Position numbers and translations under genes: made by a program
From: a virus
Reading direction: 5' to 3' (one strand)
DNA length: 64,000 bases
Virus record (IMG/VR): IMGVR_UViG_3300037264_003921
Span: 1 to 64,000 of that record
Notes under the pieces: model-generated
The model's input: the letters and a program-made list of their open reading frames with translations, nothing else
Told to the model about the DNA's origin: nothing
Databases searched by the model: none
In this document: in pieces, positions 55 to 28,709 of the stretch
How positions within the stretch are numbered: position 1 is the first letter of the stretch
How the letters are laid out: each line of letters begins with the position of its first letter

Positions 55-130
55 TGGAGCGGCTAACGGGATGCGCGCCCGTGCTTAAACCATGGCAAGG
101 TTTCGTGCTACTAAGCTACACCATAGCCGC
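55..130 (-). tRNA. tRNA-Gly(GCC)
   Basis: GCGGCTA/TAGCCGC acceptor, AAACC-TTGCCAT-GGTTT anticodon arm, U73, encoded CCA. Confidence 0.9.
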
Positions 131-131
131 A

Positions 132-217
132 TGGCGGAAGATTATCGGATCGAACGATCAGCCTTTCAGCTGGCCTGGGGTTCAAGCCCAGTTAGGAACC
201 ATTTCCTACAACCTTCC
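132..217 (-). tRNA. tRNA-Ser(TGA), 8/4 cloverleaf (allo-tRNA/Sec-like)
   Basis: 8-bp acceptor GGAAGGTT/AATCTTCC, 4-bp T stem ATCG/CGAT, long D stem with 4-nt loop, variable arm, G73-CCA. Confidence 0.8.
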
Positions 218-645
218 TAATGTTTCATTAAACTAGTTCTGATTTCCATCAAAATTTTACCAAGCCAATTCTCTCCAACACCTCTACATTGACCCCAGAA
301 ACGGTCTCCCCATGTATTTCCTTCAATCAGCTCAGCATCACTTGTCAACAATAATTTCTTTTCCAAATCTGGATATTTTGTAAATTTTTGTTTAACTAAT
401 TCACGCATCACATCAATCTTTATGACATCCCAGTCATCACGTAATGTCACACCGCGCCCCAATCTCTTTGCCTTGCCTGGAGTTGCAGCCATTTTTATGA
501 CTTCGTGTTCTAATGGATCTAGAGTTTTAGCTGCTTGATATGCGTGTTCCGTAGAAGGAAAGATTACACCACTGTATTCAATTTCAACTGGGTAAAAATT
601 AGAAAGAAAATCATATTGCCCACGGAACAAATCAATTACAGCCAC
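217..645 (-). CDS. NADAR (YbiA-like) family protein
   Basis: FLSNFY, STEHAYQAAK, LIEGNTWGDRFWG and GENWLGKILMEIR motifs. Confidence 0.9.
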   Translation of the reverse strand: MAVIDLFRGQYDFLSNFYPVEIEYSGVIFPSTEHAYQAAKTLDPLEHEVIKMAATPGKAKRLGRGVTLRDDWDVIKIDVMRELVKQKFTKYPDLEKKLLLTSDAELIEGNTWGDRFWGQCRGVGENWLGKILMEIRTSLMKH

Positions 646-980
646 ATTCCCCTCTTAAAATTGCCATTGTTCCTAATCTTAAATACAGCAACGGAGTCAG
701 GGATTGATGCTATAAATTCATCCATATCCTCAAATAAGACTTTTATGTTATTGTCAACACAAATTTTACCCTTATCAGACCAGTCGTTTGCATAATGAAT
801 TTTTTCAAATTTCGAAATTCCAAATTTATCCAAATCTGATATGGTCTCTTCATGCCAACTAGGATCCCTTCCTGTTATTATATGAATTTCAAAAATGTCA
901 GATCTTATTAATGTGGAAAAAAATTCAGGATAGTCAGTGATGGTGCCATCTATATCGACACCGACCTTCATTTTGTTCAT
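636..980 (-). CDS. HAD-superfamily phosphatase/nucleotidase-like protein
   Basis: N-terminal DIDGT motif, ITGR, FEDMD. Confidence 0.7.
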   Translation of the reverse strand: MNKMKVGVDIDGTITDYPEFFSTLIRSDIFEIHIITGRDPSWHEETISDLDKFGISKFEKIHYANDWSDKGKICVDNNIKVLFEDMDEFIASIPDSVAVFKIRNNGNFKRGMWL

Positions 981-1612
981 AGTCCTATTATATCAATATG
1001 TGAAAACGCAGAATCAAGTCTATTTTCAAGTTTTATTACACTAAGTTTATGTTTTTCAACATCACCACCACCAACATCAATGATCTTATAGATCCCGTTC
1101 GATTGCACTACATTATCGGAATGCAAATCAAAATATCCTACCCCCTCATCACGAATCCATTGCATCCCATCTAACAATTGCTTAAATGCATTGTTCTTTG
1201 TCTTATCATAGTGTGCTTTTAATTGACTGACAATTTCGTCTGTGTCATTTGGTAATGCATCTAAAGTTCTCTTGAGGTCAGGGTCTGTCAATGGTTTCCC
1301 GCCATATTCTTGTAATATTACAAATAAATCTAGATCACCTATTTTGTAAACTCTATAGTATGCTGCAACATTTGGATGTCTTTTACTAATTAGACTGGCA
1401 GCTGCATTTGCTTCATTATTATCAATAGTCAATTTAAAAACAAATCCGCCTGATAATAACCAAGCATAACCCATATCCCCATGACCAATAAAATTGTTGA
1501 GATCTACATTGAATTCTCTTTCAATAGTTGACGCTATTTTATCAATGCTAGCCAATTTGTCATTGTCCAGCAAACTAACAAGATCCTCAAGTGCTGATCG
1601 TAGTGAAGACAT
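977..1612 (-). CDS. Protein-kinase-like (APH/PK fold) protein
   Basis: IGHGDMG glycine loop, VFK, DLHSDNV catalytic loop, IIDVG. Confidence 0.65.
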   Translation of the reverse strand: MSSLRSALEDLVSLLDNDKLASIDKIASTIEREFNVDLNNFIGHGDMGYAWLLSGGFVFKLTIDNNEANAAASLISKRHPNVAAYYRVYKIGDLDLFVILQEYGGKPLTDPDLKRTLDALPNDTDEIVSQLKAHYDKTKNNAFKQLLDGMQWIRDEGVGYFDLHSDNVVQSNGIYKIIDVGGGDVEKHKLSVIKLENRLDSAFSHIDIIGL

Positions 1613-1625
1613 ATATTATTTTTAT

Positions 1626-1709
1626 CGGAAGGTGGAGGTGTTGATCCCCATACTCTTCAGTACCATCTTGTTTCGAGCAAGCGATGAACTCCCGTTCATT
1701 TCACCTTCC
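1626..1709 (-). tRNA. tRNA-Ser(CGA), 8/4 cloverleaf (allo-tRNA/Sec-like)
   Basis: 8-bp acceptor GGAAGGTG/CACCTTCC, D stem ATGAAC-GGGA-GTTCAT, CTTG-CTCGAAA-CAAG, variable arm, 4-bp T stem, G73. Confidence 0.75.
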
Positions 1710-1805
1710 ATAATCAAATCCAAATTTAACCATTAAAAATATCAAAACACAAGCTATAATTATAATGTTCACATACAACATATCATTATTTGGTCGTTCT
1801 GACAT
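1701..1805 (-). CDS. Possible 34-aa single-TM peptide
   Basis: ATG at 1805: MSERPNNDMLYVNIIIIACVLIFLMVKFGFDYGR; fills the gap between tRNAs. Confidence 0.35.
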   Translation of the reverse strand: MSERPNNDMLYVNIIIIACVLIFLMVKFGFDYGR

Positions 1806-1821
1806 AATATTTTTTAAATAC

Positions 1822-1895
1822 TGGAGCTAACGAGCGGAATCAAACCGCTGCTTCATCATTACCAATGATGGGGTCTGTCACTAACCTACGCTAGC
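1822..1895 (-). tRNA. tRNA-Thr(GGT)
   Basis: GCTAGCG/CGTTAGC acceptor, CATCA-TTGGTAA-TGATG, CCA. Confidence 0.9.
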
Positions 1896-1898
1896 GAT

Positions 1899-1976
1899 TG
1901 GGGTGGCTGGCGGGACTCGCACCCGTTAATAGCCTGGGTCACAGCCAGGCGGCTCGACTCTTTGCCTTCAACCACC
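1899..1976 (-). tRNA. tRNA-His(GTG)
   Basis: G-1:C73, CCTGG-CTGTGAC-CCAGG, CCA. Confidence 0.9.
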
Positions 1977-1982
1977 GTATTT

Positions 1983-2329
1983 TGGTGGAGCCGGAGGCGT
2001 GTTTCAGCCTCGTCCTATGATTCATCCTCAGTGACATCTACGCATATAGGCTGCGCTAATTCTTGAAATCGTCTCAGGAGCAGCCAGCTTCAACGATTTT
2101 ATAGCTTCGAATTATGTCGACATCTATCATTCGAAGCACTAAAAGATGTCCATCCGATGTTTTAACGTCTCATGTAATTATCGGAGTCATTACAATCGAC
2201 GTAGCGTTAAGCCGCTAAAGCAAGAGGTGTCTTGCCGTTTGTGTTTTCGATCTCGTATTAACGCGGCCTCGAGATCAACCGCGATGCGCAGTCATCCGAT
2301 TTAGATCCATAGTCGAATCTATCGGCCCC
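1983..2329 (-). ncRNA. ssrA: tmRNA; tag (A)GKTPLALAA
   Basis: 5' GGGGCCGATAGATTCGAC, 3' CGGCTCCACCA with G3:U70; internal frame GGC AAG ACA CCT CTT GCT TTA GCG GCT TAA. Confidence 0.92.
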
Positions 2330-2338
2330 AAATATTAG

Positions 2339-2430
2339 TGGTGAGCGTAGAGGGATTCGAACCCACAAACCCGAAGGTGGCAATTTTACAGATTGTTGAA
2401 CTCTTTGGCCCAGCCCTGTTCAGTACGCTC
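2339..2430 (-). tRNA. tRNA-Tyr(GTA) with enlarged D arm
   Basis: GAGCGTA/TACGCTC acceptor, CAAT-CTGTAAA-ATTG, variable arm with TTCG loop, GGTTCGAATCC, CCA. Confidence 0.85.
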
Positions 2431-2770
2431 AATCAATTTGATAGTGAACTATAACATAAAATTCTGAATTATACGGAAGTGGCCCACTAACAGATACGTC
2501 GATCACTTTAATATTGTTGTCATCGATCCACTTATTGATTTGCTTCTCAATTTCTTTGATCGTGCCAACAAACATTTTAATATGGCTTTTTGGTTCTGGT
2601 TTTGATTCTGGTAGATTCGGTGACGATATGATGACTGGTGTAGGCTCAATAACAATACACGACTTGTCATCATTCAATGCGGTGATCACAAACATAGTGA
2701 TCACAACAATAGATGAAGGTATAAAGAAACCAAGAAAGCCACCAAACAGAAGTTTAAACATACATTTCAT
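2429..2770 (-). CDS. Membrane-anchored hypothetical protein
   Basis: 113-aa ORF, N-terminal hydrophobic helix, Pro-rich linker. Confidence 0.65.
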   Translation of the reverse strand: MKCMFKLLFGGFLGFFIPSSIVVITMFVITALNDDKSCIVIEPTPVIISSPNLPESKPEPKSHIKMFVGTIKEIEKQINKWIDDNNIKVIDVSVSGPLPYNSEFYVIVHYQID

Positions 2771-2780
2771 ATAATATTTT

Positions 2781-3083
2781 TGAGCACCTGCTGACCTCGC
2801 TTTTTGCTACAAATCGGCGTACTGGGAGCTTTAGTCGCGACATTAGCATCTGTTTATGGCTCCTCTCATCTTTCGATGGTACGGCTAACCCCACAAAGTC
2901 CGATAACGATCGTTATCGTGCGACACCGGCTAAGATATGCTCTTCTCTTACAGTGGTCATAACGGACATTATGCCCTGCCACTATAATAAGTCCCTACTG
3001 CTAATGGGAACGTTACGAAGAACTTTACTTGTACCCTTTTGGGCCGTTCTCCCATGGGCTTTCAGCGACAGACCAGGCACTCA
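2781..3083 (-). ncRNA. Unidentified ~300-nt structured RNA
   Basis: Ends pair (TGAGTGCCTG/CAGGTGCTCA), several internal hairpins, GC-rich, no credible ORF. Confidence 0.55.
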
Positions 3084-3087
3084 AATT

Positions 3088-3159
3088 TGGACCCCATCGG
3101 TTATGCTCCGATTTCTCAGGCTTGCAAGGCCAGCATTCTACTGATTGAACTAGGAGCCC
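3088..3159 (-). tRNA. tRNA-Ala(TGC)
   Basis: GGGCTCC/GGGGTCC with G3:U70, loop CTTGCAA. Confidence 0.85.
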
Positions 3160-3166
3160 TTAATAT

Positions 3167-3520
3167 TTAATTTGGTCTTTTTATAATCTTCTTATACATC
3201 CGTTTAGCATCTTGATCAATTTCTTCATTATATGAAGAAAAGTCACATAGGTGTCCAAAAACCAAATGACAATTATGGCCACCTTCACCACACAATGAGA
3301 TTAGATTAAGCGGATCTAGTTCAAGTTCAGGAAATAGATGAAATGGTTTTTTATGATGAACTTGAACATCATTGGTAGATCTACATACTACACATGCAGC
3401 ACAATGTTTGAGATGTTCACTACGAACCGCCCACCATTTCGAGTTTCTCTTTAGTTTAGCTTTCTTAATCGGTACATCTTGTGGCTTTCCGAATATAAGG
3501 CTCTTTATTTTATTAATCAT
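3167..3520 (-). CDS. HNH endonuclease
   Basis: CVVC...VHHKKP...NLISLC...CH; start moved to ATG 3520 because the longer ORF overlaps tRNA-Ala. Confidence 0.8.
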   Translation of the reverse strand: MINKIKSLIFGKPQDVPIKKAKLKRNSKWWAVRSEHLKHCAACVVCRSTNDVQVHHKKPFHLFPELELDPLNLISLCGEGGHNCHLVFGHLCDFSSYNEEIDQDAKRMYKKIIKRPN

Positions 3521-3536
3521 ATTGTAGTTTTGGTGG

Positions 3537-3610
3537 TGGTGGAGCCACGCGGACTCGAACCGCGATTTTCTGAATGCCATTCAGATGTCCTTCCATTGGA
3601 CGATGACCCC
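3537..3610 (-). tRNA. tRNA-Ala(GGC)
   Basis: G3:U70, TCTGA-ATGGCAT-TCAGA, GGTTCGAGTCC, CCA. Confidence 0.92.
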
Positions 3611-3612
3611 AT

Positions 3613-3712
3613 GAGTAGATTGGTTCACAACCCACTGCATACCTACTCGAAGAGTTGAATTCAATGTCAACATTTCCAACTTCATCGTTGGTGTGTTAGT
3701 TACACTATCTTC
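3613..3712 (-). ncRNA. Degenerate tRNA-like cloverleaf plus 3' hairpin
   Basis: GAAGA/TCTTC closing stem, GTGT/ACAC, CCAAC/GTTGG and GTTGA/TCAAC arms, then GAGTAG/CTACTC hairpin. Confidence 0.4.
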
Positions 3713-3721
3713 ATTCAATGT

Positions 3722-3797
3722 TGGTCAGGGATGAAAGACTTGCACTTTCCGTCTCGTGAATCCGAGTCACGCGGCCCGCTATCTGACCTTATCCCTG
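3722..3797 (-). tRNA. tRNA-Pro(CGG)
   Basis: CAGGGAT/ATCCCTG, CGTGA-CTCGGAT-TCACG, CCA. Confidence 0.88.
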
Positions 3798-3809
3798 ATG
3801 GTCAATTAT

Positions 3810-3886
3810 TGGTCAGGATGACAGGATTTGAACCTGCACTCTTCCGGATCCAAACCGGACGCTTTACCAAGTTAAGCTACATCCTG
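3810..3886 (-). tRNA. tRNA-Pro(TGG)
   Basis: CAGGATG/CATCCTG, TCCGG-TTTGGAT-CCGGA, CCA. Confidence 0.93.
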
Positions 3887-3897
3887 ATACGGCAATT

Positions 3898-3973
3898 TGG
3901 TGGACGGTCCCGGTTACGCTCCGGGCTCTCTGCCTCTTCAGGGCAGCGCTTTCACTAGGTTAGCTAACCGTCC
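3898..3973 (-). tRNA. tRNA-Phe(GAA)
   Basis: GGACGGT/ACCGTCC, CTGCC-CTGAAGA-GGCAG, CCA. Confidence 0.9.
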
Positions 3974-3979
3974 AAATAA

Positions 3980-4054
3980 TGGTAGCAGGTCCGGGAACTG
4001 CCCCCGGCTTGATGTGGTTATGAACCACCCTAAGACACTTGCCTCCCACCTGCA
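3980..4054 (-). tRNA. tRNA-Met(CAT), initiator-like 1:72 mismatch
   Basis: GTGG-TTCATAA-CCAC; T1xT72 mismatch; CCA. Confidence 0.8.
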
Positions 4055-4067
4055 TCGTGTATTTCAC

Positions 4068-4589
4068 TCATTGTTTCTTTTTAAATTCTATTTTATGCTT
4101 TTTGTCAAATCCCCATACTTCCATCGAGCCACATGTCCACTTGCCAGTTGGTATTTTTTTGCCATATTCAGCGTCAAGATCTTCCATGTACGCCAATGTA
4201 ACATGTGGTTTAAATTCAGGCCACGTATTCTCCCACTCCACTTTATGTTCATTAACGGATTTGACCAATTTATTACGCAATGAATGCAATCCAGATGATT
4301 TCACCTTTACAAATGCTACTTTTACACCGTCTTGGTTTTTTGGAAAATATCCAAGGCCATTAAGTTCACACTCAAACGGCTCAATATTCTCAGCCACTTC
4401 GTATGCAGATATGATGATTTTATCCTCCATGTCATAATCTTGGCTTCCAAGATATAGTGTCGTGATATGTGCTGGACTATCATCTTCCTTCAAAGTTGGA
4501 AATTTGCTATTAAGATCAGTTGGTAATTTAATAAAAATACCAACATGTTTAAGCTTCTTTTTTGCCTCGAAGAGTGATGATAATCTCAT
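4068..4589 (-). CDS. 2H phosphoesterase (LigT/Acb1-like)
   Basis: Two HxT motifs: PAHITTLYLG and FKPHVTLAY. Confidence 0.85.
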   Translation of the reverse strand: MRLSSLFEAKKKLKHVGIFIKLPTDLNSKFPTLKEDDSPAHITTLYLGSQDYDMEDKIIISAYEVAENIEPFECELNGLGYFPKNQDGVKVAFVKVKSSGLHSLRNKLVKSVNEHKVEWENTWPEFKPHVTLAYMEDLDAEYGKKIPTGKWTCGSMEVWGFDKKHKIEFKKKQ

Positions 4590-4592
4590 ATG

Positions 4593-4904
4593 TTACCACT
4601 GATAATTTTTAGATTTAGAATACATTTTAATATCGTCAATTATTTTCGCGTCATTTAAATCATCTACATACCATGCTTTTTGATATTCAAATGGTGCACG
4701 ATTTTGTCTGTCTGCAAAAATCACACCATTAGCATCAGGTAACTTAGCATCATTTAAGATAAATGCATCATCACCATGAAAGCGACCACGATATTTGATA
4801 ATTTGCAATGGATAACCGTCAACTTCAATCCAATCACCAATTTTAACTGTTCGTCCATCTATTATAAATGAATCAACAGCCTCAAAAAGTGTCATTAATT
4901 TCAT
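4593..4904 (-). CDS. Hypothetical protein
   Basis: Start moved to ATG 4904 (MKLMTLFEA) because the upstream part overlaps tRNA-Gln. Confidence 0.65.
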   Translation of the reverse strand: MKLMTLFEAVDSFIIDGRTVKIGDWIEVDGYPLQIIKYRGRFHGDDAFILNDAKLPDANGVIFADRQNRAPFEYQKAWYVDDLNDAKIIDDIKMYSKSKNYQW

Positions 4905-4954
4905 GCTGTATTTTTGTAAAAATCTAGAATTGATAATTATTAGATATTGAATTA

Positions 4955-5028
4955 TGGCTGGGATGCCTGGTAACGCTCCAGGTCCTATTATTTCAGAGAT
5001 AAGCGTGCAGCTTTTACACCACATCCCA
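4955..5028 (-). tRNA. tRNA-Gln(CTG)
   Basis: U1-A72, G73, TTAT-CTCTGAA-ATAA, CCA. Confidence 0.88.
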
Positions 5029-5034
5029 AAATAT

Positions 5035-5108
5035 TGGCTGGGGTGAAAGGTACTGCCCCTTTGCTTACTGGTTCAAAGCCAGTCGCGCTACTTTTACACC
5101 ACACCCCA
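5035..5108 (-). tRNA. tRNA-Gln(TTG)
   Basis: U1-A72, ACTGG-CTTTGAA-CCAGT, CCA. Confidence 0.9.
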
Positions 5109-5109
5109 A

Positions 5110-5188
5110 TGGCAGCCTCGACGGGACTCGCACCCGCTAATATTCCTTCGTGACAGGAAGGTGGCTCGACTACTTTGCCCTCGAAGCT
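5110..5188 (-). tRNA. tRNA-Asp(GTC)
   Basis: CCTTC-CTGTCAC-GAAGG, G73-CCA. Confidence 0.9.
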
Positions 5189-5195
5189 ATAAGTT

Positions 5196-5274
5196 TACCA
5201 CTGAAAGGATTTGCACCTTCATGCTCTCGCGTCCGCTTTTAAGACGGATGTGTCTTCTATTTCACCACAGTGGC
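5196..5274 (-). tRNA. tRNA-Leu(TAA)
   Basis: GCCACTG/CAGTGGT, TCCGT-CTTAAAA-GCGGA, short variable arm, A73. Confidence 0.85.
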
Positions 5275-5283
5275 ATTTAATAT

Positions 5284-5364
5284 TGGTGGGCCGGGAAGGA
5301 CTTAAACCTCCGTCCTCCGTAAGTCTCTACGACCCACGGTGCTCTTTCTCTGAGCTACCGACCC
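5284..5364 (-). tRNA. tRNA-like RNA, Lys-type body with extended anticodon arm (anticodon undetermined)
   Basis: GGGTCGGTAGCTCAG...CCGGCCCACCA; anticodon arm CCGTGGGTC-GTAGA-GACTTACGG. Confidence 0.7.
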
Positions 5365-5365
5365 A

Positions 5366-5436
5366 TGGCAGACTGCCTCGATGCCGCCTCGAGCTGCAGG
5401 CGTTTGGAGTGCCCACCGATCACTGGATCGCAGTCT
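5366..5436 (-). tRNA. tRNA-Trp(CCA), reduced D arm
   Basis: AGACTGC/GCAGTCT, loop CTCCAAA, G73-CCA. Confidence 0.75.
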
Positions 5437-5443
5437 AAAAATT

Positions 5444-5623
5444 TTACTTGCTCGACTTCCAATAACGCTTCATTGCACGGCTAAGCTTCCGACGATGACT
5501 TGCCGATTCTGGTGAATCCCAATACTGTGTTAACGAACAAGACCGACTTTCATTAGCTTCATGCTTCTGTTCCCAGAAACGCTTCATCCCTCTACTACGT
5601 GCGCGATTCGCCGAATTAGTCAT
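5444..5623 (-). CDS. 59-aa basic protein with repeated SxxMKRxW motif
   Basis: GGAGG SD; MTNSANRARSRGMKRFWEQK...RRKLSRAMKRYWKSSK; below the ORF-track cutoff. Confidence 0.65.
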   Translation of the reverse strand: MTNSANRARSRGMKRFWEQKHEANESRSCSLTQYWDSPESASHRRKLSRAMKRYWKSSK

Positions 5624-5667
5624 ATTACCTCCAAATCACATCTTTAAATACACTTGGATATGATTTT

Positions 5668-5741
5668 TGGAGCGGATGGTCGGTAATGCTCCGACGTTTC
5701 TTGGTTGGAAGCCAAGAGTCTTACTATTAGACGACACCCGC
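5668..5741 (-). tRNA. tRNA-Gly(TCC)
   Basis: GCGGGTG/CATCCGC, CTTGG-CTTCCAA-CCAAG, U73-CCA. Confidence 0.9.
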
Positions 5742-11746: not shown

Positions 11747-12781
11747 TTATTTTAATCCATTACGAATAATTGGCTGTTTCATCCAATGGCTATTAGTTTG
11801 GACATGATTCTCTCTTACATATTTAGCTACAACATTTTTAAATTCAACATATCTAAAAGAACGCGCGATACGAACAACATATCCCTCACATTGGTCCCCA
11901 TTAAATTCAGATATATACATTGAACGTATCCTACTTTCATTCCACACACCACGATATATAACTGGGACTGTTTCCAAGTCAAGCAATTTTGCCCAATCTT
12001 CCACATCATCCCAAGCTAAGCTCTCATTTTTATCATTCCAAACAGAATGGACCATAAAGTACGCTGGCAGATTTTTATAATAGATCGAATGTTTAGCAAA
12101 CAAATTCTCACCACAGATTCGCCATGATGGCTCGATTTCATGGCCAATACGCCTATGAAGACCCCAAAGCCAATCACGGGACGGATGGCTAGATGAATCT
12201 ATCGATCTAGCATGGAAACCACGACGATCCATGCTTGTCTGCTCACCGTCCATCTTAACTGTAACAACTACATCTTCTCCATCAAAATAAGAGAGGTTTT
12301 CGATTACTCGATCGTCACTATTAAGGCCAAGACTCCATGGCAAATGCTGTGTACGTGGGTGTTTTACACGATCTGTAAAAAGATGTAATACAGGTTTGAT
12401 GACTTTCTGAACTGATTCATCATGAAAAAGTTCTCCTTTCAGACGTATCCCATTTGGTAGTATTGGATTGGACCATTTATCATACACTTGATCATGATAT
12501 AGGTGTGATGGTAGAACCACTTCATTTATTCCACATTGCTCACGGAGTGTATCACATGAAATGAGTGTTGATTCGGCTGCTAAATGATGCTCTTCACAAA
12601 CTGATACGCCATTATTAATGTAATAGCCTCCATCAGAAAATAATCTGCGTTCTATAATATGATGTGCATCAATAGCCGATTTCAAGCACATAACACATTT
12701 ATAATTATCACGCTTGAAAACAGCTTCTCTGAATTCATCTCTAGTCAGAAGTGCACTCATCGAACTCGTCTTGATACCCAT
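11747..12781 (-). CDS. HNH-fused RNA ligase (nucleotidyltransferase)
   Basis: CVMC..DAHHI N-terminus; HPRTQHLPWS, TVKMDGE (KxDG), CGEN, EGYVVR, AKYVR. Confidence 0.85.
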   Translation of the reverse strand: MGIKTSSMSALLTRDEFREAVFKRDNYKCVMCLKSAIDAHHIIERRLFSDGGYYINNGVSVCEEHHLAAESTLISCDTLREQCGINEVVLPSHLYHDQVYDKWSNPILPNGIRLKGELFHDESVQKVIKPVLHLFTDRVKHPRTQHLPWSLGLNSDDRVIENLSYFDGEDVVVTVKMDGEQTSMDRRGFHARSIDSSSHPSRDWLWGLHRRIGHEIEPSWRICGENLFAKHSIYYKNLPAYFMVHSVWNDKNESLAWDDVEDWAKLLDLETVPVIYRGVWNESRIRSMYISEFNGDQCEGYVVRIARSFRYVEFKNVVAKYVRENHVQTNSHWMKQPIIRNGLK

Positions 12782-13140
12782 CTATCAACGGCTTTTTTAA
12801 TTGTTTTGCTTATCATGTCGAGACTATCAGGGTCTGCTAAAGAAATCTTAATGTCTAATCCTCCTGTATATCCACTGATCAAAATGTCGTCGTCAACTGT
12901 TTCAATTACAACGGTATCTAATAACCAACTTGTAGAATCAGCAGCATGATCAACATCAATCCCGATAATTGTGGCGTTAGCGTTAGGTAGAGGGAGATCA
13001 TTTTTAGTAATAACCATATATGCATTATTGCCGAATTCAATAAGACGATACTCCTTCATCAATCCGGCATTTTTAAATGCCAACCGAATTATAGCACGCC
13101 TCAATTTATCCATTTGGTATCTTGCCTGGTGCCATCGCAA
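12757..13140 (-). CDS. DPxFF-like paralog
   Basis: C-terminal ISLADPDSLDMI. Confidence 0.6.
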   Translation of the reverse strand: MRWHQARYQMDKLRRAIIRLAFKNAGLMKEYRLIEFGNNAYMVITKNDLPLPNANATIIGIDVDHAADSTSWLLDTVVIETVDDDILISGYTGGLDIKISLADPDSLDMISKTIKKAVDRWVSRRVR

Positions 13141-13642
13141 ATTTTAAAGCAGCTCTGCAAACAACAGCAGATGCAGTAGTGGTGTCAAAAAGTGACCCTT
13201 TTTCAATGGCCTTATACGACGTTATTGCATCATATAATTCAGCAATCCAACAATTATCTATATAATTTAGCGAAAACATGCATGGGTTAAGCTTACTAAC
13301 AATATCAAGAGCAAGGCCTAATTCATCACTATACTGTGGAACAGCCGTCAAACAGAATATATAATGGCCAGCAAATGTATCATGCTTAATCCGTTTGTTA
13401 TATTGATCTTTAGCCTCTCCATCCATCATCTCTAACATTGTGCTATCACAACAACAACGATCAACGATCACAGATCGTTCGCATGCAGGACACATCCATG
13501 AATCTGGATCGGTATCTGGTGCAACCCCCCATTGGCCATCAACAAAATAGCATGTTGTACGTCCAACAATCTTAGATCCATATATCTCAGACGCGACTAA
13601 ATCATCTAACTGATTATGTGATATAGTTTCAGCATCAATCAT
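13106..13642 (-). CDS. Phage ABA-sandwich/BC1872-like protein
   Basis: LDDLVASEIYG...VPQYSDELGLALDIVSKL...AVVCRAALK. Confidence 0.55.
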   Translation of the reverse strand: MIDAETISHNQLDDLVASEIYGSKIVGRTTCYFVDGQWGVAPDTDPDSWMCPACERSVIVDRCCCDSTMLEMMDGEAKDQYNKRIKHDTFAGHYIFCLTAVPQYSDELGLALDIVSKLNPCMFSLNYIDNCWIAELYDAITSYKAIEKGSLFDTTTASAVVCRAALKFAMAPGKIPNG

Positions 13643-13654
13643 TTGAATTAAATA

Positions 13655-13834
13655 CTACCTGTAATGATGGCATTCTATTACATACCAAACGTTACAATGG
13701 TAAACATGATAGTACCCACGACCACCACATCTAATACAATGCATTACTTCGATCCCATCATAATTACGCCACGTAACTGTGCATCCGCTCAAAAATGGGA
13801 TGCAACATAATAATAATATTGCAAATTTCTTCAT
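13655..13834 (-). CDS. 59-aa lipoprotein
   Basis: MKKFAILLLCCIPFLSGC lipobox; ATGA overlap with the upstream stop; ends in TAG. Confidence 0.65.
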   Translation of the reverse strand: MKKFAILLLCCIPFLSGCTVTWRNYDGIEVMHCIRCGGRGYYHVYHCNVWYVIECHHYR

Positions 13835-14178
13835 ACAATATTTTTAACATTATCGCCCCCTTTTAATGCAAATTCATTCTTAAGTTTATCATATTGTCTA
13901 TCATAATACCACTTTGTACCCAAACAGATGCCATGTCTATATTCACTATTACGAATTTCATGATAGAAATTCAACAATGCAGTGATCTCAATCCGATGGT
14001 CTGCAACATATCCTTGAGCACACCACCAATCCTTCTTTAATCCGCCAAGCTTTTTCTTTATCTCGTATAACTCTCCATATGGAATGGTTGTCTTCCTAGC
14101 TCTTTTTGCCAGCGTCTGGTTAGCTGACAGAGTCTTTATACGCTCTTTAATTGTAAAAATCGCTTCTTTGATATCCAT
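13831..14178 (-). CDS. Basic helical hypothetical protein downstream of the RGPP leader
   Basis: AGGAG SD; 115-aa ORF. Confidence 0.75.
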   Translation of the reverse strand: MDIKEAIFTIKERIKTLSANQTLAKRARKTTIPYGELYEIKKKLGGLKKDWWCAQGYVADHRIEITALLNFYHEIRNSEYRHGICLGTKWYYDRQYDKLKNEFALKGGDNVKNIV

Positions 14179-14225
14179 ATTTGCTCCTATAATAATAGTA
14201 TTAAAATTAACACAAATTCAATTTA

Positions 14226-14267
14226 TTACAGCAAATATGGTGGGCCACGGTCCTACGTATAATGCAT
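14226..14267 (-). promoter_or_regulatory. Amber-interrupted leader peptide MHYT*DRGPPYLL
   Basis: GGAG SD + ATG CAT TAT ACG TAG GAC CGT GGC CCA CCA TAT TTG CTG TAA TAA. Confidence 0.6.
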
Positions 14268-14268
14268 A

Positions 14269-14595
14269 TTATTCTCCAGTCCACAAAACATATTTTGATA
14301 AATGCTTCCTCATTGATTTAGGTATTGGCTCTGTAGCCAATGCCGTTGCCTGATTGTGTAGATCAGGCTCAGTGAATAAGATAGCCCTAATTCCGTATTT
14401 ATTGATGTCATGCTGTGCGTGTAGAAGCTCATCCTCATTTCGCACAGAGCATATAACTATAAATGATATTGGTGCTAGTTTATCCCCGAAGTGGATCCCA
14501 GCTTCATGAGCGGCATGCGCTCCCTGGCATACCTGTTGTCGAAGTGTTAAATCAGTTCTTATAAAAACGTAGAAATAACGAGTTTCCTATGTCAT
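14269..14595 (-). CDS. Pth2-like peptidyl-tRNA hydrolase with in-frame TAG at codon 3
   Basis: AGGA SD, ATG ACA TAG GAA...; YVFIRTDL..QQVCQGAHAAHE...FTEPDLHNQATALA; 108 sense positions including the amber codon, then TAA. Confidence 0.75.
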
Positions 14596-14630
14596 AACCA
14601 TTCCTAAAATTTAGATACTTCTGGCACTAT

Positions 14631-14704
14631 TGGTGCGCCCGACCAGGATCGAACTGGTTTATGAGATTTTAGAGATCCCCGGCCATCCAATAGCCCACGG
14701 GCGC
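14631..14704 (-). tRNA. Amber suppressor tRNA (anticodon CUA)
   Basis: GCGCCCG/CGGGCGC, GGGAT-CTCTAAA-ATCTC, CCAGTTCGATCCTGG, A73-CCA. Confidence 0.88.
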
Positions 14705-14707
14705 ATA

Positions 14708-14926
14708 TCATACGGTTGATCCCCTACGTATAATCTCTATCTCATGCCAATTAAGTATTTCCACAAACTCTTTAGGTGGATGGTCCATTTTGTCACTAAT
14801 ACCCCTACCAATTGATATCACTTCTTTCCAATCAGAAATCTTCCAAGATTTGTCTTCATTAGTTATAAGACTCTTCTTCATCTCAGTCAGCAACATCAAA
14901 CAAGCACTAAGTTCTAGATTAATCAT
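14708..14926 (-). CDS. Hypothetical protein
   Basis: 72-aa ORF in a co-directional chain. Confidence 0.55.
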   Translation of the reverse strand: MINLELSACLMLLTEMKKSLITNEDKSWKISDWKEVISIGRGISDKMDHPPKEFVEILNWHEIEIIRRGSTV

Positions 14927-14945
14927 TGCTCTTCATAGTCAAATA

Positions 14946-15308
14946 CTAATCGAATATACTATTCACAGCAGAATGACCACAACAATACTCAATCGTTGCA
15001 ATAAATTCTTTTATTATTTTATACAATGAATTAAGACAATACTCTAGTTTATTAAAAAATTTAGGGTCTGTAGCCATTATTTTACATGCAGGGCTATCAA
15101 GGTCAACACCATCTTTATCGATTTTGAATAATGATAATGTTTTCCCATTGATGGTCATCGAGATATAGTGGCTATCCTTTGCTATAGATACAGCAAATCC
15201 ATTCATAGTGAATTTAGATTGATTACTATCAAGCCATGTATTAATAATAGCTCGTAAATCTGGCACGCCAGCTTGATCTTGATCGATTTGATTAGTTTGA
15301 TAGTCCAT
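14946..15308 (-). CDS. DPxFF paralog-family protein
   Basis: DLRAIINTWL...IMATDPKFFNKL. Confidence 0.7.
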   Translation of the reverse strand: MDYQTNQIDQDQAGVPDLRAIINTWLDSNQSKFTMNGFAVSIAKDSHYISMTINGKTLSLFKIDKDGVDLDSPACKIMATDPKFFNKLEYCLNSLYKIIKEFIATIEYCCGHSAVNSIFD

Positions 15309-15819: not shown

Positions 15820-16200
15820 TTATTTCCTTGTAGAAATATCTAAAAGTATTGCCCCTCTATTTATCCATTCTGAACAATCAGTATTAATCCATTTACCAAT
15901 TTTACTAAATGAATCTGGCGCAGCCATGTTGGTCTTATCGTATCCGCGCGATGGTTGTTTCACTATCTGCCAATAAACAGATCTTATACATTCTGTTTCA
16001 GAAATATACATAAGACATATATCTTTCTTCGGTAAAATCGGACTAAATTTATGTTGTCGTTTAACATATAATATGGTGCAATCAGATGAAGTTGGATGAA
16101 TATAAAACACCCAATTAAAATTATCGTGAATCCACTTCAGCACTAATTTAGCTAAATATGTCGGCCTCGGCCCTTTAGGATTTTTTATTGCGTTTATCAT
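15820..16200 (-). CDS. DPxFF-like paralog
   Basis: LAKLVLKWI...MAAPDSFSKI. Confidence 0.6.
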   Translation of the reverse strand: MINAIKNPKGPRPTYLAKLVLKWIHDNFNWVFYIHPTSSDCTILYVKRQHKFSPILPKKDICLMYISETECIRSVYWQIVKQPSRGYDKTNMAAPDSFSKIGKWINTDCSEWINRGAILLDISTRK

Positions 16201-17587
16201 TCACATTTGAAATACTGTTAATTTTTCTAATCATTTTTAATTGATTTATACGATCAATCTTTTTATCAATTGATTGCATTCTCCTTTTAATCAGCATATC
16301 ATTGCGCATCGTCATAAAATCTATCTTAATATGGCCATGGGCATGTAAACGATGTCTATGTTTCAGTGATATCAAGCCAGCATCGCGTAATTGTTTGAAT
16401 CGTATTGTAGAAAAATCTCTGTTTTTAAATTTTTTATTCAAAACACAGCCAATAATAATTTTTGCAATAATAAGGTCCATTGATTGCAATTGCTGCTCGT
16501 CATTTACATGTTTTAAATAATAATCTATAATTGCGACGCTCCTGATTCGATCCAATATCACCGAATTTATAGCATCAACAGCAATTTTAATCCTATTATT
16601 GATATTACATTCTCTATTAATCCTTGCTTTAACAGACTCCAGAGATCTTTTAAACAAGTTTATGATTTTTCTCTGTTTTTCAACCGACAATCTTACACTA
16701 TTGGCAGATGTAAATTCTAAACCCAAATGTTTGAATTTAGACGCTTGAATGAACCCATGACACGGAATAAATGATAAATTCAAACGATGACTTTGTTTCA
16801 AGCTGAGTTTTAATGATGTTATTGACTCATCCAATAATGATGCAGCATCTAATGCAACGTTCTGGTCTGATGACAACATTATAAAATCATCAGCATATCT
16901 AAAATAATTTATTGGCAATTTTGACAATTTCTTGTCCACATCGGTTAAATAAACATTCGATAATACACAAGCTATCGAAGAGCCAAATGGAATCCCTATG
17001 TTAGAGACATGCTCATCATCCAGACCATCATTAACATATTTAAATATAATTCTATCTTTAACCAATTGATATAAATAGTCATTTTTATCAATGAGACAAG
17101 CCAGTTTATCCAATAATATATCATGGTCTATTGTATAGAAATAGTTTGTTATATCACGTTTAATTATAAATGGTTTCCCAATTAATGATTTTGATATTTT
17201 TTGTTGACAGACGTCAATCCCAAAATTATTAACACGGTATGCATAACTATTATTTGAAAACCATTTATCAAATGCGATGCTAAGGCTCTCATTCAACCAT
17301 TTATCAACAATTTTATCTTGCCATGTAGCAACATAGATGTCTCTTAATTTATTTTGTTTCACTCTACGTTGAACATGCAAAAATGGTTGAAACGTAAATT
17401 TGTGCTGTCTTATTTGATTTTCAATGAAATATGCCTTATTTAAAATATCCAATCCGAAATCCCAATATGTAAGATTATCATAAGATTTTACATAACATAG
17501 CTTAGGATTGAATATGATCTTATTTAATTGGTTGATTACTGACGATTTAAATGGCCTAAGGTTAAAACAGTCAATTAATTTTAGCAT
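16175..17587 (-). CDS. Reverse transcriptase (group II-like/unclassified)
   Basis: KLRDIYV..QDKIV, SYAYR, KRDITNYFYTIDH, GIPFGS..LSNVYL, YFRYADDF, FKHLG; likely start ATG 17587. Confidence 0.9.
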   Translation of the reverse strand: MLKLIDCFNLRPFKSSVINQLNKIIFNPKLCYVKSYDNLTYWDFGLDILNKAYFIENQIRQHKFTFQPFLHVQRRVKQNKLRDIYVATWQDKIVDKWLNESLSIAFDKWFSNNSYAYRVNNFGIDVCQQKISKSLIGKPFIIKRDITNYFYTIDHDILLDKLACLIDKNDYLYQLVKDRIIFKYVNDGLDDEHVSNIGIPFGSSIACVLSNVYLTDVDKKLSKLPINYFRYADDFIMLSSDQNVALDAASLLDESITSLKLSLKQSHRLNLSFIPCHGFIQASKFKHLGLEFTSANSVRLSVEKQRKIINLFKRSLESVKARINRECNINNRIKIAVDAINSVILDRIRSVAIIDYYLKHVNDEQQLQSMDLIIAKIIIGCVLNKKFKNRDFSTIRFKQLRDAGLISLKHRHRLHAHGHIKIDFMTMRNDMLIKRRMQSIDKKIDRINQLKMIRKINSISNVNDKRNKKS

Positions 17588-17731
17588 GGTCGTCGAACTA
17601 ATAAAACGGATTAGACGTAGTCTAATCCTTACATTCAACTTATCTACTAGAGCATACCATCCTAAGGCTTGTAACAGCTCTAGCTTTTAAGCATGAGGAT
17701 AGGCATATGCCTGGCAGTTCGACGACCATAC
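17584..17731 (-). ncRNA. Retron-like ncRNA upstream of the RT
   Basis: Perfect 14-bp inverted repeat at 17586-17599/17716-17729 enclosing a 9-bp hairpin (17608-17628) and a long hairpin (17652-17710). Confidence 0.65.
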
Positions 17732-27194: not shown

Positions 27195-28709
27195 CTATAA
27201 GTTACTAACGTTTACAACTCCGTAGTAAAGGCCTCCATCTTCTATTAGTTTCTTACCATAGCGGGTCATGATACCCTTATTTGGCGTGAAACTATTAGGA
27301 TCCAAAACAGTTGGAGTCGAGAGTAGTGGGATGTATGGAGCATAGAAGTATCCACTATCCAATACGCTCGAGCCCTTAAAGCCCATTAGGATCTTACAAT
27401 TTGGGAATAGCGGATCCTTATAGAGCTTCAATTTGCCCTGTATTGTACCAGCAGATGTAATACCAATGTCAATACCATCCTGAGCTAGCGCGTCCGAGCC
27501 ACGGAAATCGTTCAGCTGCTCAAACTTCGAAGCGATATCAGCAGATGTTACCATCCAGTTTGCAGGACCACGGAGTGTGGTTCTGTGGATGATGTTTGCA
27601 ACTTCCAATACCTTGTACAGGAGGGCGATGTTGCGATCCGTAAAGTTAACCGAGGCACCAGCGCCTGTCGCAAAGTTATGCGTGGCACGAATGCTTGCAG
27701 CAACGATTAGATCGTTGATGATTTCGCGGTCAATTTCTGCTACCATCTCGTCTGCCATTAGATCTGTCAGGGTGCTCTCAGCATCGATGTTATGAACCGA
27801 CTTGAGATCCTGAGCAGCTTCTAACGACCACGAGGTCTTTAGCTTACGTGTTGCAGCTGCTACGCTATCCGAATCAATCGAAAGCGTAACCTCTGGCTGG
27901 AACGGGTTGTTTTCAAGATCGAACTCGTAATCTACGCGTGCAATCATGCCAGTTACCGATCCAGAACTCAACGTTACTTGTACTACACCTGTTGAGTGGC
28001 TAAACACCGTAGCGCCTGGTGAGGCCTCGTCAACTGTATAAACAGTTGGGCTTGCCACCAAGACGAGATCCGGGTCGCCGTTCGAATCGAAGCTAACCTG
28101 AATGATTGGTGTCGGGTCTTCGCAGCTATCCGCATCGGAAGCGTAAACGTTTACAACAACCGTGCCTGCTAGAACCGGCTTATGCAATAGTGTTGCTGTA
28201 ACGACGTCACCGCCGCCACTGATTACAGCGTCTTCATTCTTTACTACTTGTGAGCTGTAGTAAGGATCAAGTGCCCAACCGTTCTGACGACCGAACGCCT
28301 GAGCGGTATTCTGGCGCATGATCTGTGTTCCAGCTTGTGTCTGCCCCTTGTTAAGAGCATAACGATAGCGGATGTAGAAAATCAAGCTAGCTGGCTGGCT
28401 CATTGGTTGCACGCCAACTAGATTATCCGCGATTAGACGTGGATAGCTCTTGCGGATCAATGGGAGGGCGAAACGAGTGAAATCAGCGATATCACCAGTT
28501 GTCGTCGCATCTTCCAAGATCATCGAGCGGCCCTTTGGATCCCAGCAATTATACTGGTTTTCCATCATCGTAGCAAGAAGACCAAACTTTGATGGCTTTA
28601 CTTCCTTGCACTTTCTAAGAACTGGAGCCCATTTCTTCACGAGCTGATTCTTGCGAGATTCACGAAGAATCGACTCTTGACGGGCTTCTTCTACCATAAG
28701 CTTATCCAT
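27195..28709 (-). CDS. Major capsid protein (T4 gp23-like)
   Basis: LVGVQPMSQP, RKLKTSWSLEAAQDLKSVHNIDAE, EIDREII, YAPYIPL, GIMTRYG. Confidence 0.95.
   Translation of the reverse strand: MDKLMVEEARQESILRESRKNQLVKKWAPVLRKCKEVKPSKFGLLATMMENQYNCWDPKGRSMILEDATTTGDIADFTRFALPLIRKSYPRLIADNLVGVQPMSQPASLIFYIRYRYALNKGQTQAGTQIMRQNTAQAFGRQNGWALDPYYSSQVVKNEDAVISGGGDVVTATLLHKPVLAGTVVVNVYASDADSCEDPTPIIQVSFDSNGDPDLVLVASPTVYTVDEASPGATVFSHSTGVVQVTLSSGSVTGMIARVDYEFDLENNPFQPEVTLSIDSDSVAAATRKLKTSWSLEAAQDLKSVHNIDAESTLTDLMADEMVAEIDREIINDLIVAASIRATHNFATGAGASVNFTDRNIALLYKVLEVANIIHRTTLRGPANWMVTSADIASKFEQLNDFRGSDALAQDGIDIGITSAGTIQGKLKLYKDPLFPNCKILMGFKGSSVLDSGYFYAPYIPLLSTPTVLDPNSFTPNKGIMTRYGKKLIEDGGLYYGVVNVSNL

Follow-up and report, generated by a model that had tools for sequence, protein, structure and literature searches.

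A probable suppressor-tRNA-gated translation cassette with a PTH2-like gene and an R-G-P-P leader in a standard-code jumbo phage

The present analysis concerns the first 64,000 nucleotides (nt) of the IMG/VR virus record IMGVR_UViG_3300037264_003921, and this whole stretch is called the window. Within it a compact minus-strand locus carries, in order of reading, a transfer RNA (tRNA) gene with anticodon CUA, a gene similar to peptidyl-tRNA hydrolases of the PTH2 family, a leader mini-open reading frame (mini-ORF) that encodes the residues R-G-P-P, and a gene for a small basic protein, here termed gene X. The PTH2-like gene and the leader are each interrupted close to the start by an in-frame TAG, referred to as a gate. 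Coordinates are given in Table 1. The record measures 125,263 bp, the window being its bases 1-64000, and since CheckV puts its completeness at 34%, the virus is taken to be a jumbo phage. Its genes lie on the minus strand almost throughout. The common strand and the closeness of the four parts suggest that they form one transcription unit.

Table 1. Positions of the cassette parts and of one context feature in the window (SD, Shine-Dalgarno sequence; RBS, ribosome-binding site; aa, amino acids; tmRNA, transfer-messenger RNA)
Feature	Position	Strand	Remarks
Suppressor tRNA, anticodon CUA, encoded CCA, 74 nt	14631-14704	-	ARAGORN; RF00005; cloverleaf fold
PTH2-like start region	14587-14605	-	AGGA 14602-14605, ATG 14593-14595, ACA, gate TAG 14587-14589
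PTH2-like ORF, 108 codons including gate	14269-14595	-	stop TAA 14269-14271
Leader M-H-Y-T-TAG-D-R-G-P-P-Y-L-L-TAA-TAA	14223-14267	-	gate 14253-14255; RGPP codons 14238-14249
Predicted anti-RBS segment CCAUAUUUGCU, second Pro codon to Leu codon	14230-14240	-	predicted pairing with 14175-14185
SD of X (AGGAG, 14184-14188) and start codon (14176-14178)	14175-14188	-	within predicted stem
Gene X, 115-aa basic helical protein	13831-14178	-	ORF; 44-nt spacer after leader
Phage tmRNA	1983-2329	-	Rfam RF00023, 99.3 bits; context, outside the cassette; no ARAGORN call in the window

A preliminary description, made from the sequence itself, had noted a stand-alone CUA tRNA about 9 kb from the main tRNA cluster, an ORF 35 nt downstream of it that opens with an SD followed by ATG-ACA-TAG-GAA, a second SD-led mini-ORF directly after that gene, and a 115-aa basic protein after the leader. 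All of these are found at the locus. ARAGORN calls the tRNA on the minus strand, and the other tRNAs are located at 55-5741. A search of Rfam limited to 141 nt matches the gene to RF00005 with 48.5 bits (E 5.6e-10), and the minimum-energy fold is a clean cloverleaf. A cloverleaf recognized by tRNA models and an anticodon complementary to a stop codon are both present, as expected of a suppressor tRNA. Wider Rfam searches (3 kb, 64 kb and whole contig) did not detect it; these misses are attributed to loss at the speed filters and are not considered counter-evidence.

Past the gate the frame of the PTH2-like gene stays open to its TAA, and the read-through product contains the stretches YFYVFIRTDL, QGAHAAHEAG, EPD and TALATEP, in that order. 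The first ATG, GTG or TTG lies 48 codons past the TAG; no such codon is found between the amber codon and the first motif, as had been described. The gate shares the context AC(A/G)-TAG-GA(A/C) with that of the leader, which was also noted at the outset. The leader begins one base past the TAA of the PTH2-like gene, and its SD, GGAG, is inside the final codons of that gene. It is read as ATG (14265-14267) followed by CAT TAT ACG TAG GAC CGT GGC CCA CCA TAT TTG CTG. An R-[A/G]-P-P core of the kind known from small arrest ORFs is present as RGPP, followed by three codons and the tandem stop TAA TAA (14223-14228).

The assignment to PTH2 was assayed by sequence and by structure. The window protein matches the Pfam PTH2 profile (PF01981) over profile positions 4-106 of 115 with E 0.0016; the match that the preliminary description had anticipated thus exists, but its 19.1 bits lie under the Pfam gathering cut-off of 23. 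Among 15 aligned family members, 13 match PTH2 at E <= 0.1, the best at 1.6e-5, and a search of the PDB with the family profile lists solved peptidyl-tRNA hydrolases first (best 24bt_A, E 0.0025). The AlphaFold2 model has a predicted local distance difference test score (pLDDT) of 93.7. In a Foldseek search of the PDB with this model, the first 12 ranks are taken by Pth2 proteins, archaeal and human, or by structural-genomics homologues (2zv3, 3erj, 1wn2, 1q7s, 1rlk and 1xty among them); these 12 have E 3.6e-6 to 1.2e-4 and template modelling scores of 0.69-0.81, normalised to query length, and the rest is noise. By these models the read-through product has the PTH2 alpha/beta fold. R10, D12, Q21, H24, A25, E73 and D75 are invariant in the family. 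In the hidden Markov model alignment to 24bt_A, Gln residues conserved in the family stand opposite Lys residues of the solved hydrolase, and E73 and D75 adjoin its Asp. Work on the Sulfolobus enzyme points to a Lys after the RTDL strand and an Asp as the catalytic residues of PTH2.

Sequencing runs were also examined for the locus. One DNA run, possibly from the source sample, contains the whole stretch. A metatranscriptome run from a different study holds four identical contigs, one of which, of 246 nt, covers 14489-14729 without a differing letter and includes the tRNA, the spacer, the gate TAG and 33 codons beyond. Thus an assembly error at the first TAG is excluded, and the phage is present in a second sample. 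On 13300-15300 the metatranscriptome contigs are confined to 13600-13775, 14489-14921 and 15200-15300, and the gaps elsewhere prove nothing.

No GenBank phage matches 13600-15000 at the nucleotide level, and the relatives compared here came from protein-level searches: a single-sequence scan of viral contigs gave one locus, an alignment-based scan 16, and a metagenome scan, keyed on one conserved motif, the best 80 of 123 relatives. The 97 loci, window included, fall into 69 clusters at about 90% ungapped identity, although clusters may still hold related samples. Homologous loci have 34-58% protein identity to the window. The preliminary description had tied its reading to conservation of the early TAG, of a TAG-x(1-3)-RGPP leader and of a neighbouring CUA tRNA, and each of the three recurs in the relatives. 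An SD-ATG-x(1-8)-stop layout is kept in 58 of the 69 clusters, with an early in-frame TAG behind a short upstream start in 56, a TGA in the same arrangement in two (L009 and L082) and a TAA in none. Of the remaining clusters, one (L076) has the TAG without an upstream start codon, nine have a start codon after the nearest upstream stop and are ungated or ambiguous, and one is cut by the contig end.

The 58 gated clusters have further features in common, and chance does not account for the layout. In 52 of 58 the short start has an SD-like 4-mer before it, versus 693 of 2,900 random positions (24%). Thr stands before the gate in 30, and in 32 the mini-ORF has two codons, M-T-stop being the commonest form. 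Across all 58 no start codon is found from the gate to the first beta-strand. A purine 3' of the codon favours amber suppression; the base after the gate is a purine in 56 of 58 PTH2-like genes and in 24 of 26 leaders, and a pyrimidine follows 12 of the 22 ordinary TAG stops of this genome.

The gates are accompanied by suppressor tRNAs. A matching CUA or UCA tRNA is found in the fetched 3-4 kb flank of 41 of 59 gated clusters (the 58 plus L076), always on the same strand, versus 2 of 9 ungated or ambiguous clusters (Fisher p = 0.0098). Of these flanking tRNAs, 16 start 106-174 nt before the gate, and 10 are located 679-816 nt after it, downstream of the PTH2-like gene. A whole-record search of gated loci without a flank suppressor covered L003, L007, L008 and L009, with L035 left out. 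The first three each have a CUA tRNA farther away, and on the TGA-gated L009 contig the search gave a single tRNA, with anticodon UCA. L082, which is also TGA-gated, has its UCA tRNA 126 nt upstream. Thus both TGA gates come with UCA tRNAs, and wherever a suppressor was found there is no mismatch between gate and anticodon.

The suppressor tRNAs themselves are diverse, 51 of 61 being unique. The nearest canonical tRNAs of 58 distinct suppressors belong to 15 classes (Arg 14, Lys 10, Gly 8, and others), and with this spread the inserted residue is not derivable from the comparison. Two or three tandem CUA tRNAs per locus are seen in L012 (5464-5714), L013 (5320-5497) and L081 (1298-1450), all on the plus strand. 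Some of these have odd T loops, GGGTAAAAGTCC-like instead of GGTTCGA, and may be non-standard suppressors or mimics.

An SD-led leader of the form M-x(1-7)-stop-x(1-3)-R-[GASD]-P-P is found between the PTH2-like gene and X in 26 of the 69 clusters, with an SD before the start in all 26. The motif is RGPP in 16, RAPP in four, RSPP in three and RDPP in three. The leader gate is the same codon as the PTH2 gate in 26 of 26, i.e., 24 TAG/TAG and two TGA/TGA (L009 and L082), and is never TAA. Arg is written with each of its six codons and Gly with each of its four, and the Ser codons come from both boxes. Since synonymous and cross-box codons are used at these positions, selection acts on the amino acids of the leader. 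As a control, a strict form of the pattern was sought in a 660-nt stretch that takes in the end of the PTH2-like gene and the sequence beyond. It is found in 24 of 65 testable clusters, four of the 69 having too little downstream sequence, versus none on the opposite strand, none upstream and 5 matches in 6,500 shuffles. A second TAG-S-R-G-P-P string is present in an open frame of L004 (3890-3910, plus strand), directly past a CUA tRNA (3814-3889); it may be a second gated leader or chance.

According to PMC12992588, RGPP and RAPP give the most robust arrest, refractory to elongation factor P, and RSPP and RDPP are partly permissive; RGPP is also the tetrapeptide most excluded from bacterial proteomes. 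The set G, A, S and D at position 2 of the phage leaders coincides exactly with the arrest-competent set of that paper.

Gated copies are also carried by cultured phages. A tblastn search of GenBank phages gave 41 records, nine of which were examined. Serratia phage BF (L101) has M-T-H-TAG with a CUA tRNA 3.3 kb downstream, Ralstonia phage RsoM2USA (L102) has M-L-TAG with a CUA tRNA about 13 kb away, and Yersinia phage fHe-Yen9-04 (L115) has M-S-H-TAG; in all three the gene is unannotated. In Cronobacter phage GAP32 (L112), with M-A-Q-TAG, the coding sequence is called from an internal start. In Acinetobacter phage ME3 (L114), with M-T-TAG, it is called from just past the gate, and a CUA tRNA about 440 nt upstream is annotated 'anticodon CTA'. 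Klebsiella phage RaK2 has an annotated copy with an ordinary start and no gate, and in XacN1, Xoo-sp13 and RAS14 the domain is fused to a longer annotated ORF, also without a gate. A cultured TGA-gated phage was sought with the L082 protein; the 25 of 27 records listed held only the same TAG-type phages, and Atu_ph07 was absent among them.

Gene X is conserved but has no family assignment. Its profile matches 59 of the 97 loci, and an alignment of 37 distinct complete X proteins shows common K-x-A-R-K and I-T-A-x-L-N-L-Y-H-E-L-R-G-x(3)-R-H stretches. The window protein has no Pfam match at E <= 0.1 and no PHROG match, the 37 members give only scattered single-member matches to Pfam, and among PDB sequences only an unrelated glycosyltransferase appears (E about 0.004). 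The AlphaFold2 model (pLDDT 91) has four helices. Fold searches with it gave no specific structural match (best Foldseek E 0.66); the best VIA-align Z of 6.4 is to generic helical proteins, below the level that the tool regards as meaningful for helical bundles. The ESM Atlas has no feature match for X, and the Atlas's own model is poor. A predicted complex of the PTH2-like protein with X (score 0.01, mark 0.32) speaks neither for nor against binding.

The RNA between leader and X was folded. The minimum-energy fold (-19.7 kcal/mol) has an 11-bp stem of CCAUAUUUGCU (14240-14230) with AGCAAAUAUGG (14185-14175), the latter being the 3' part of the X SD plus the AUG. In the window, 11 of the 17 nt of the X RBS pair with the predicted footprint of a ribosome arrested on the leader. 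X lies within 200 nt of the leader in 21 loci; in 16 of them the predicted footprint pairs with 5 or more of the 17 RBS nt, and the first Pro codon is 51-70 nt from the X start, again in 16. CCU CCU Pro codons often pair directly with GGAG of X. It is plausible, not established, that the arrest site masks the RBS of X, by the predicted fold.

The preliminary description's central proposal, a local suppressor-tRNA switch over the hydrolase-like gene and the leader, is supported by this comparative evidence on gates, anticodons, R-x-P-P and the absence of TAA. In our view the cassette is probably a translational switch in a standard-code phage, in which both protein outputs would require that the gates be decoded by the cassette's own tRNA. 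A cassette with self-decoded gates is the best explanation because the gate is early, the anticodon matches, TAA is never used, R-x-P-P is kept at the peptide level and the linkage is to one strand. The unmasking of X by arrest is the less certain half of this reading. Such a switch might work as follows. The charged CUA tRNA would compete with release factor 1 at UAG. Termination at the PTH2 gate would give a dipeptide, and reading of UAG by the tRNA would give the full protein, as the conservation suggests, so that the amount of PTH2-like protein would track UAG read-through. Read-through of the leader would bring the ribosome to R-G-P-P, where it may arrest; with the first Pro codon in the P site, it would cover the 11 nt that pair with the SD and AUG of X, and X could then be translated. 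As the weakest step, output of the hydrolase-like enzyme and of X would be coupled to the UAG suppression that the phage imposes, possibly as damage control or as feedback.

Most simply, the phage would need a PTH2-type hydrolase and X only while UAG is being suppressed, and in amounts that match the suppression. The phage tmRNA and tRNA array, and tmRNAs beside the cassette in relatives, fit a theme of translation maintenance: in L012 and L013 ARAGORN places a tmRNA at 1-1.5 kb from the cassette, and L022 has one as well. The cassette may sense release-factor or tRNA status, as the preliminary description suggested; a link of the cassette to minigene drop-off is speculation. A further form of the switch seems doubtful to us, namely a self-tuning UAG controller in which the PTH2-like enzyme would strip the aminoacyl or peptidyl ester of the suppressor tRNA, as negative feedback, and in which the target of X would be release factor 1 or the ribosome. 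If it were true, a standard-code phage could hold suppression at a set level or flip it on, and the cassette would act as a genetic-code rheostat found in nature, plausibly a step on the way to full stop reassignment. Three extra tRNA-like genes in the array (1902-1975, 5038-5108 and 5287-5364, minus strand) are detected by Rfam and not by ARAGORN, one of them with only 33.8 bits.

A number of points weigh against the switch as proposed. Hydrolase activity of the PTH2-like protein is not assured, given the Pfam score below the cut-off and the alignment of conserved Gln residues with Lys residues of the solved enzyme. Of the 56 TAG-gated clusters, 17 have no CUA tRNA in the fetched flank, and three of these 17 were searched over the whole contig. 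The metatranscriptome contigs are of low depth and may contain DNA, and so are not proof of transcription or of a single transcript. The footprint pairing seen in the window is equalled by 17 of 100 shuffles, which makes the hairpin test weak for any one locus, and 5 of the 21 leader loci have little or no such pairing. Very short peptidyl-tRNAs may drop off rather than arrest, and in the window leader six residues, that of the gate included, precede the Arg. Published RAPP-type arrest requires an adjacent N-terminal region (PMC12992588, PMC10951233), with 6-12 N-terminal residues implicated in the cases described (PMC10951233). BF and RsoM2USA have no leader or X within 2.5 kb of the gated gene. 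Suppressor tRNAs must also have other roles, since XacN1 has CUA tRNAs and no gated copy.

Other explanations of the leader and of the gates were considered. R-x-P-P could be conserved mainly as RNA, with C-rich Pro codons acting as an anti-SD over the RBS of X and translating ribosomes opening the stem without arrest. The first Pro codon is CCT in 19 of 26 leaders and the second in 13 of 26, which would bind the GGAG of X directly; RAPP-type arrest would have to work with a very short nascent chain, and shuffles that keep composition often pair as well. However, Arg and the small residue are kept as amino acids through synonymous and cross-box codon changes, and the tolerated G, A, S and D are the exact arrest-competent set of PMC12992588. 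The window leader has CCA CCA for Pro, and most of its pairing comes from the following 8 nt; 5 of 26 leaders end right at RxPP, which a stall fits better than transit. We regard conservation mainly as RNA as unlikely. A different possibility is that the short ORFs simply terminate and ribosomes re-initiate at a downstream non-canonical codon, the CUA tRNA being unrelated. The prevalence of two-codon ATG-NNN-stop forms (32 of 58), an ATG directly past the gate in two leaders (L006 and L009) and a start codon just past the stop in a few homologues (L089 and L093) would agree with this. Against it, TAA never serves as gate (0 of 58, and 0 of 26 leaders) though it ends 70 of 117 ORFs, the gate codon tracks the anticodon of the linked tRNA in both TGA cases as well, and in the 58 clusters the stretch from the gate to the conserved first strand contains no ATG, GTG or TTG. 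Re-initiation is thus quite improbable as the explanation of the gates.

A genome-wide reading of TAG as sense, similar to code 15, would make the two gates nothing special. The presence of a CUA tRNA, and the existence of recoded phages with suppressor tRNAs (10.1101/2021.08.26.457843, PMC13037316), are in its favour. The preliminary description had argued that many genes end in TAG and that there is no global recoding, and this holds: the 117 non-nested minus-strand ORFs with a length of 80 aa or more stop at TAA in 70 cases, at TGA in 25 and at TAG in 22, and among the TAG-ended ones are structural-region ORFs of 504, 985 and 844 aa. Reading TAG as sense puts 150,771 nt into ORFs of at least 100 aa, less than for TGA (181,176) or TAA (184,044), and TAG stands between two long open stretches of one frame no more often than the other stops (TAG 16, TGA 24, TAA 21). 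A whole-contig scan for an SD-led ORF of 1-12 codons, a stop and at least 70 open codons gave 14 cases for TAG, 15 for TGA and 12 for TAA; among the six listed candidates with an SD score of at least 4, only the PTH2-like gene is without a nearby start. In-frame TAG in many genes and longer ORFs, by which code-15-like recoding is recognized, are thus not seen. The genome uses the standard code, and general recoding is very unlikely to account for the gates. Backup stops were considered as a further sign and rejected: the next in-frame stop is within 5 codons for 11 of 22 TAG, 23 of 70 TAA and 10 of 25 TGA ends, with no clear difference. Tandem TAG-TAG ends two ORFs, at 27195-28709 of the window and 89315-90409 of the contig (both minus strand), an odd backup given a UAG suppressor.

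A pseudogene, or a sequencing or assembly error at both TAGs, might be suspected from a single metagenomic contig and from the five GenBank records of cultured phages in which annotators skipped or truncated the homologous gene. Nevertheless, 58 of 69 clusters have the early stop, as do cultured phages that were sequenced independently; contigs from the second study are identical across the PTH2 gate, and the protein downstream of the gate is clearly conserved. This explanation can hardly be credited. Switching by the cassette's own tRNA remains the favoured reading.

The proposed switch may be compared to known systems. The gene prfB, for release factor 2, has an early in-frame UGA that is passed by a +1 frameshift and that senses the encoded factor. 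As in prfB, an early in-frame stop of the cassette would tie the output of a translation factor to the decoding efficiency of that stop; unlike prfB, which frameshifts and senses its own product, the cassette stop would be read by a tRNA. The bar minigenes of lambda, AUG-NNN-stop, cause peptidyl-tRNA drop-off and hence dependence on peptidyl-tRNA hydrolase. The two-codon ORF of the cassette has the same form, but it would be the unsuppressed state of the hydrolase-like gene itself.

The leader resembles the RAPP/RGPP arrest peptides (ApdA, ApdP and ApcA, SecM with RAG-P, and upstream ORFs of Streptomyces lividans), which are small upstream ORFs with R-[AG]-P-P near the end (PMC12992588, PMC10951233), and in which, as predicted here, the stall site overlaps RNA that masks the RBS of the next gene. 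In contrast to these, the phage motif would be reachable only through a stop 1-3 codons before the Arg, and the phage chain of about 9 residues would lie within the tunnel, so that release by a pulling force would not apply. The leader would respond to suppression rather than to secretion, the host of the system is a phage, and the regulated gene would be X, which has no family match. Recoded phages also combine a suppressor tRNA with in-frame stops, for which conditional translation has been proposed (10.1101/2021.08.26.457843, PMC13037316). Unlike these, the cassette genome keeps TAG as a stop and gates only two dedicated sites beside the tRNA; the gates stand right at the N-terminus, one of them being linked to an arrest motif. 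The word 'hydrolase' is absent from the text of the Borges preprint (10.1101/2021.08.26.457843) and of the 2026 jumbo-phage survey (PMC13037316).

XacN1 (PMC5852040) and Atu_ph07 (PMC6102473) are likewise jumbo phages with a large tRNA set, a CUA or UCA suppressor and peptidyl-tRNA hydrolase genes. XacN1 has two CUA suppressor tRNAs, and in-silico read-through of 18 amber stops revealed no suppressor targets (PMC5852040); Atu_ph07 has a UCA suppressor and two hydrolases (PMC6102473). Those studies consider extensions past the ends of ORFs, whereas the cassette targets are stops at codons 2-9, and XacN1's own PTH2-like domain is ungated, unlike the cassette gene. Full-text searches of the literature, covering main texts, found no description of a suppressor-tRNA-gated PTH2 gene or of a stop-gated arrest leader.

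With the cassette, the orphan suppressor tRNAs of standard-code jumbo phages would gain concrete conserved targets, of which the XacN1 authors found none (PMC5852040). If the switch is real, it would parallel, in nature, the gene switches made by amber suppression in synthetic biology, and its leader would be the first of the arrest-peptide type to sense stop read-through, in place of secretion, a metabolite or a drug. It may also represent an intermediate stage toward stop-codon reassignment in phages. The records of BF, RsoM2USA, fHe-Yen9-04, GAP32 and ME3, in which the gated gene is missed or truncated, reveal a systematic gap in annotation, and the cultured carriers make the switch directly testable.

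Some neighbouring genes should also be mentioned. A 59-aa ORF with a lipoprotein-like signal (ending in LSGC) lies within 13655-13834 on the minus strand and stops at a TAG (13655-13657). Its frame continues into a 178-aa ORF (13106-13642, minus strand), the ATG of which is 15 nt further. UAG read-through would join the two; L002 has a homologue of the 178-aa ORF without the small one. The 487-aa ORF at 16175-17638 (minus strand), 1.5 kb upstream of the cassette, matches a PHROG reverse-transcriptase family (E 4e-28). Also near the cassette is a 344-aa RNA ligase (11747-12781, minus strand; PHROG E 2e-121) with an HNH-like N-terminus and a function of the tRNA-repair type. Farther away, a 1,442-aa ORF (33852-38180, minus strand) matches portal proteins only at residues 1057-1283, with weaker matches to endonuclease, terminase and ribonucleotide-reductase families, which suggests a portal gene broken by inteins or other insertions.

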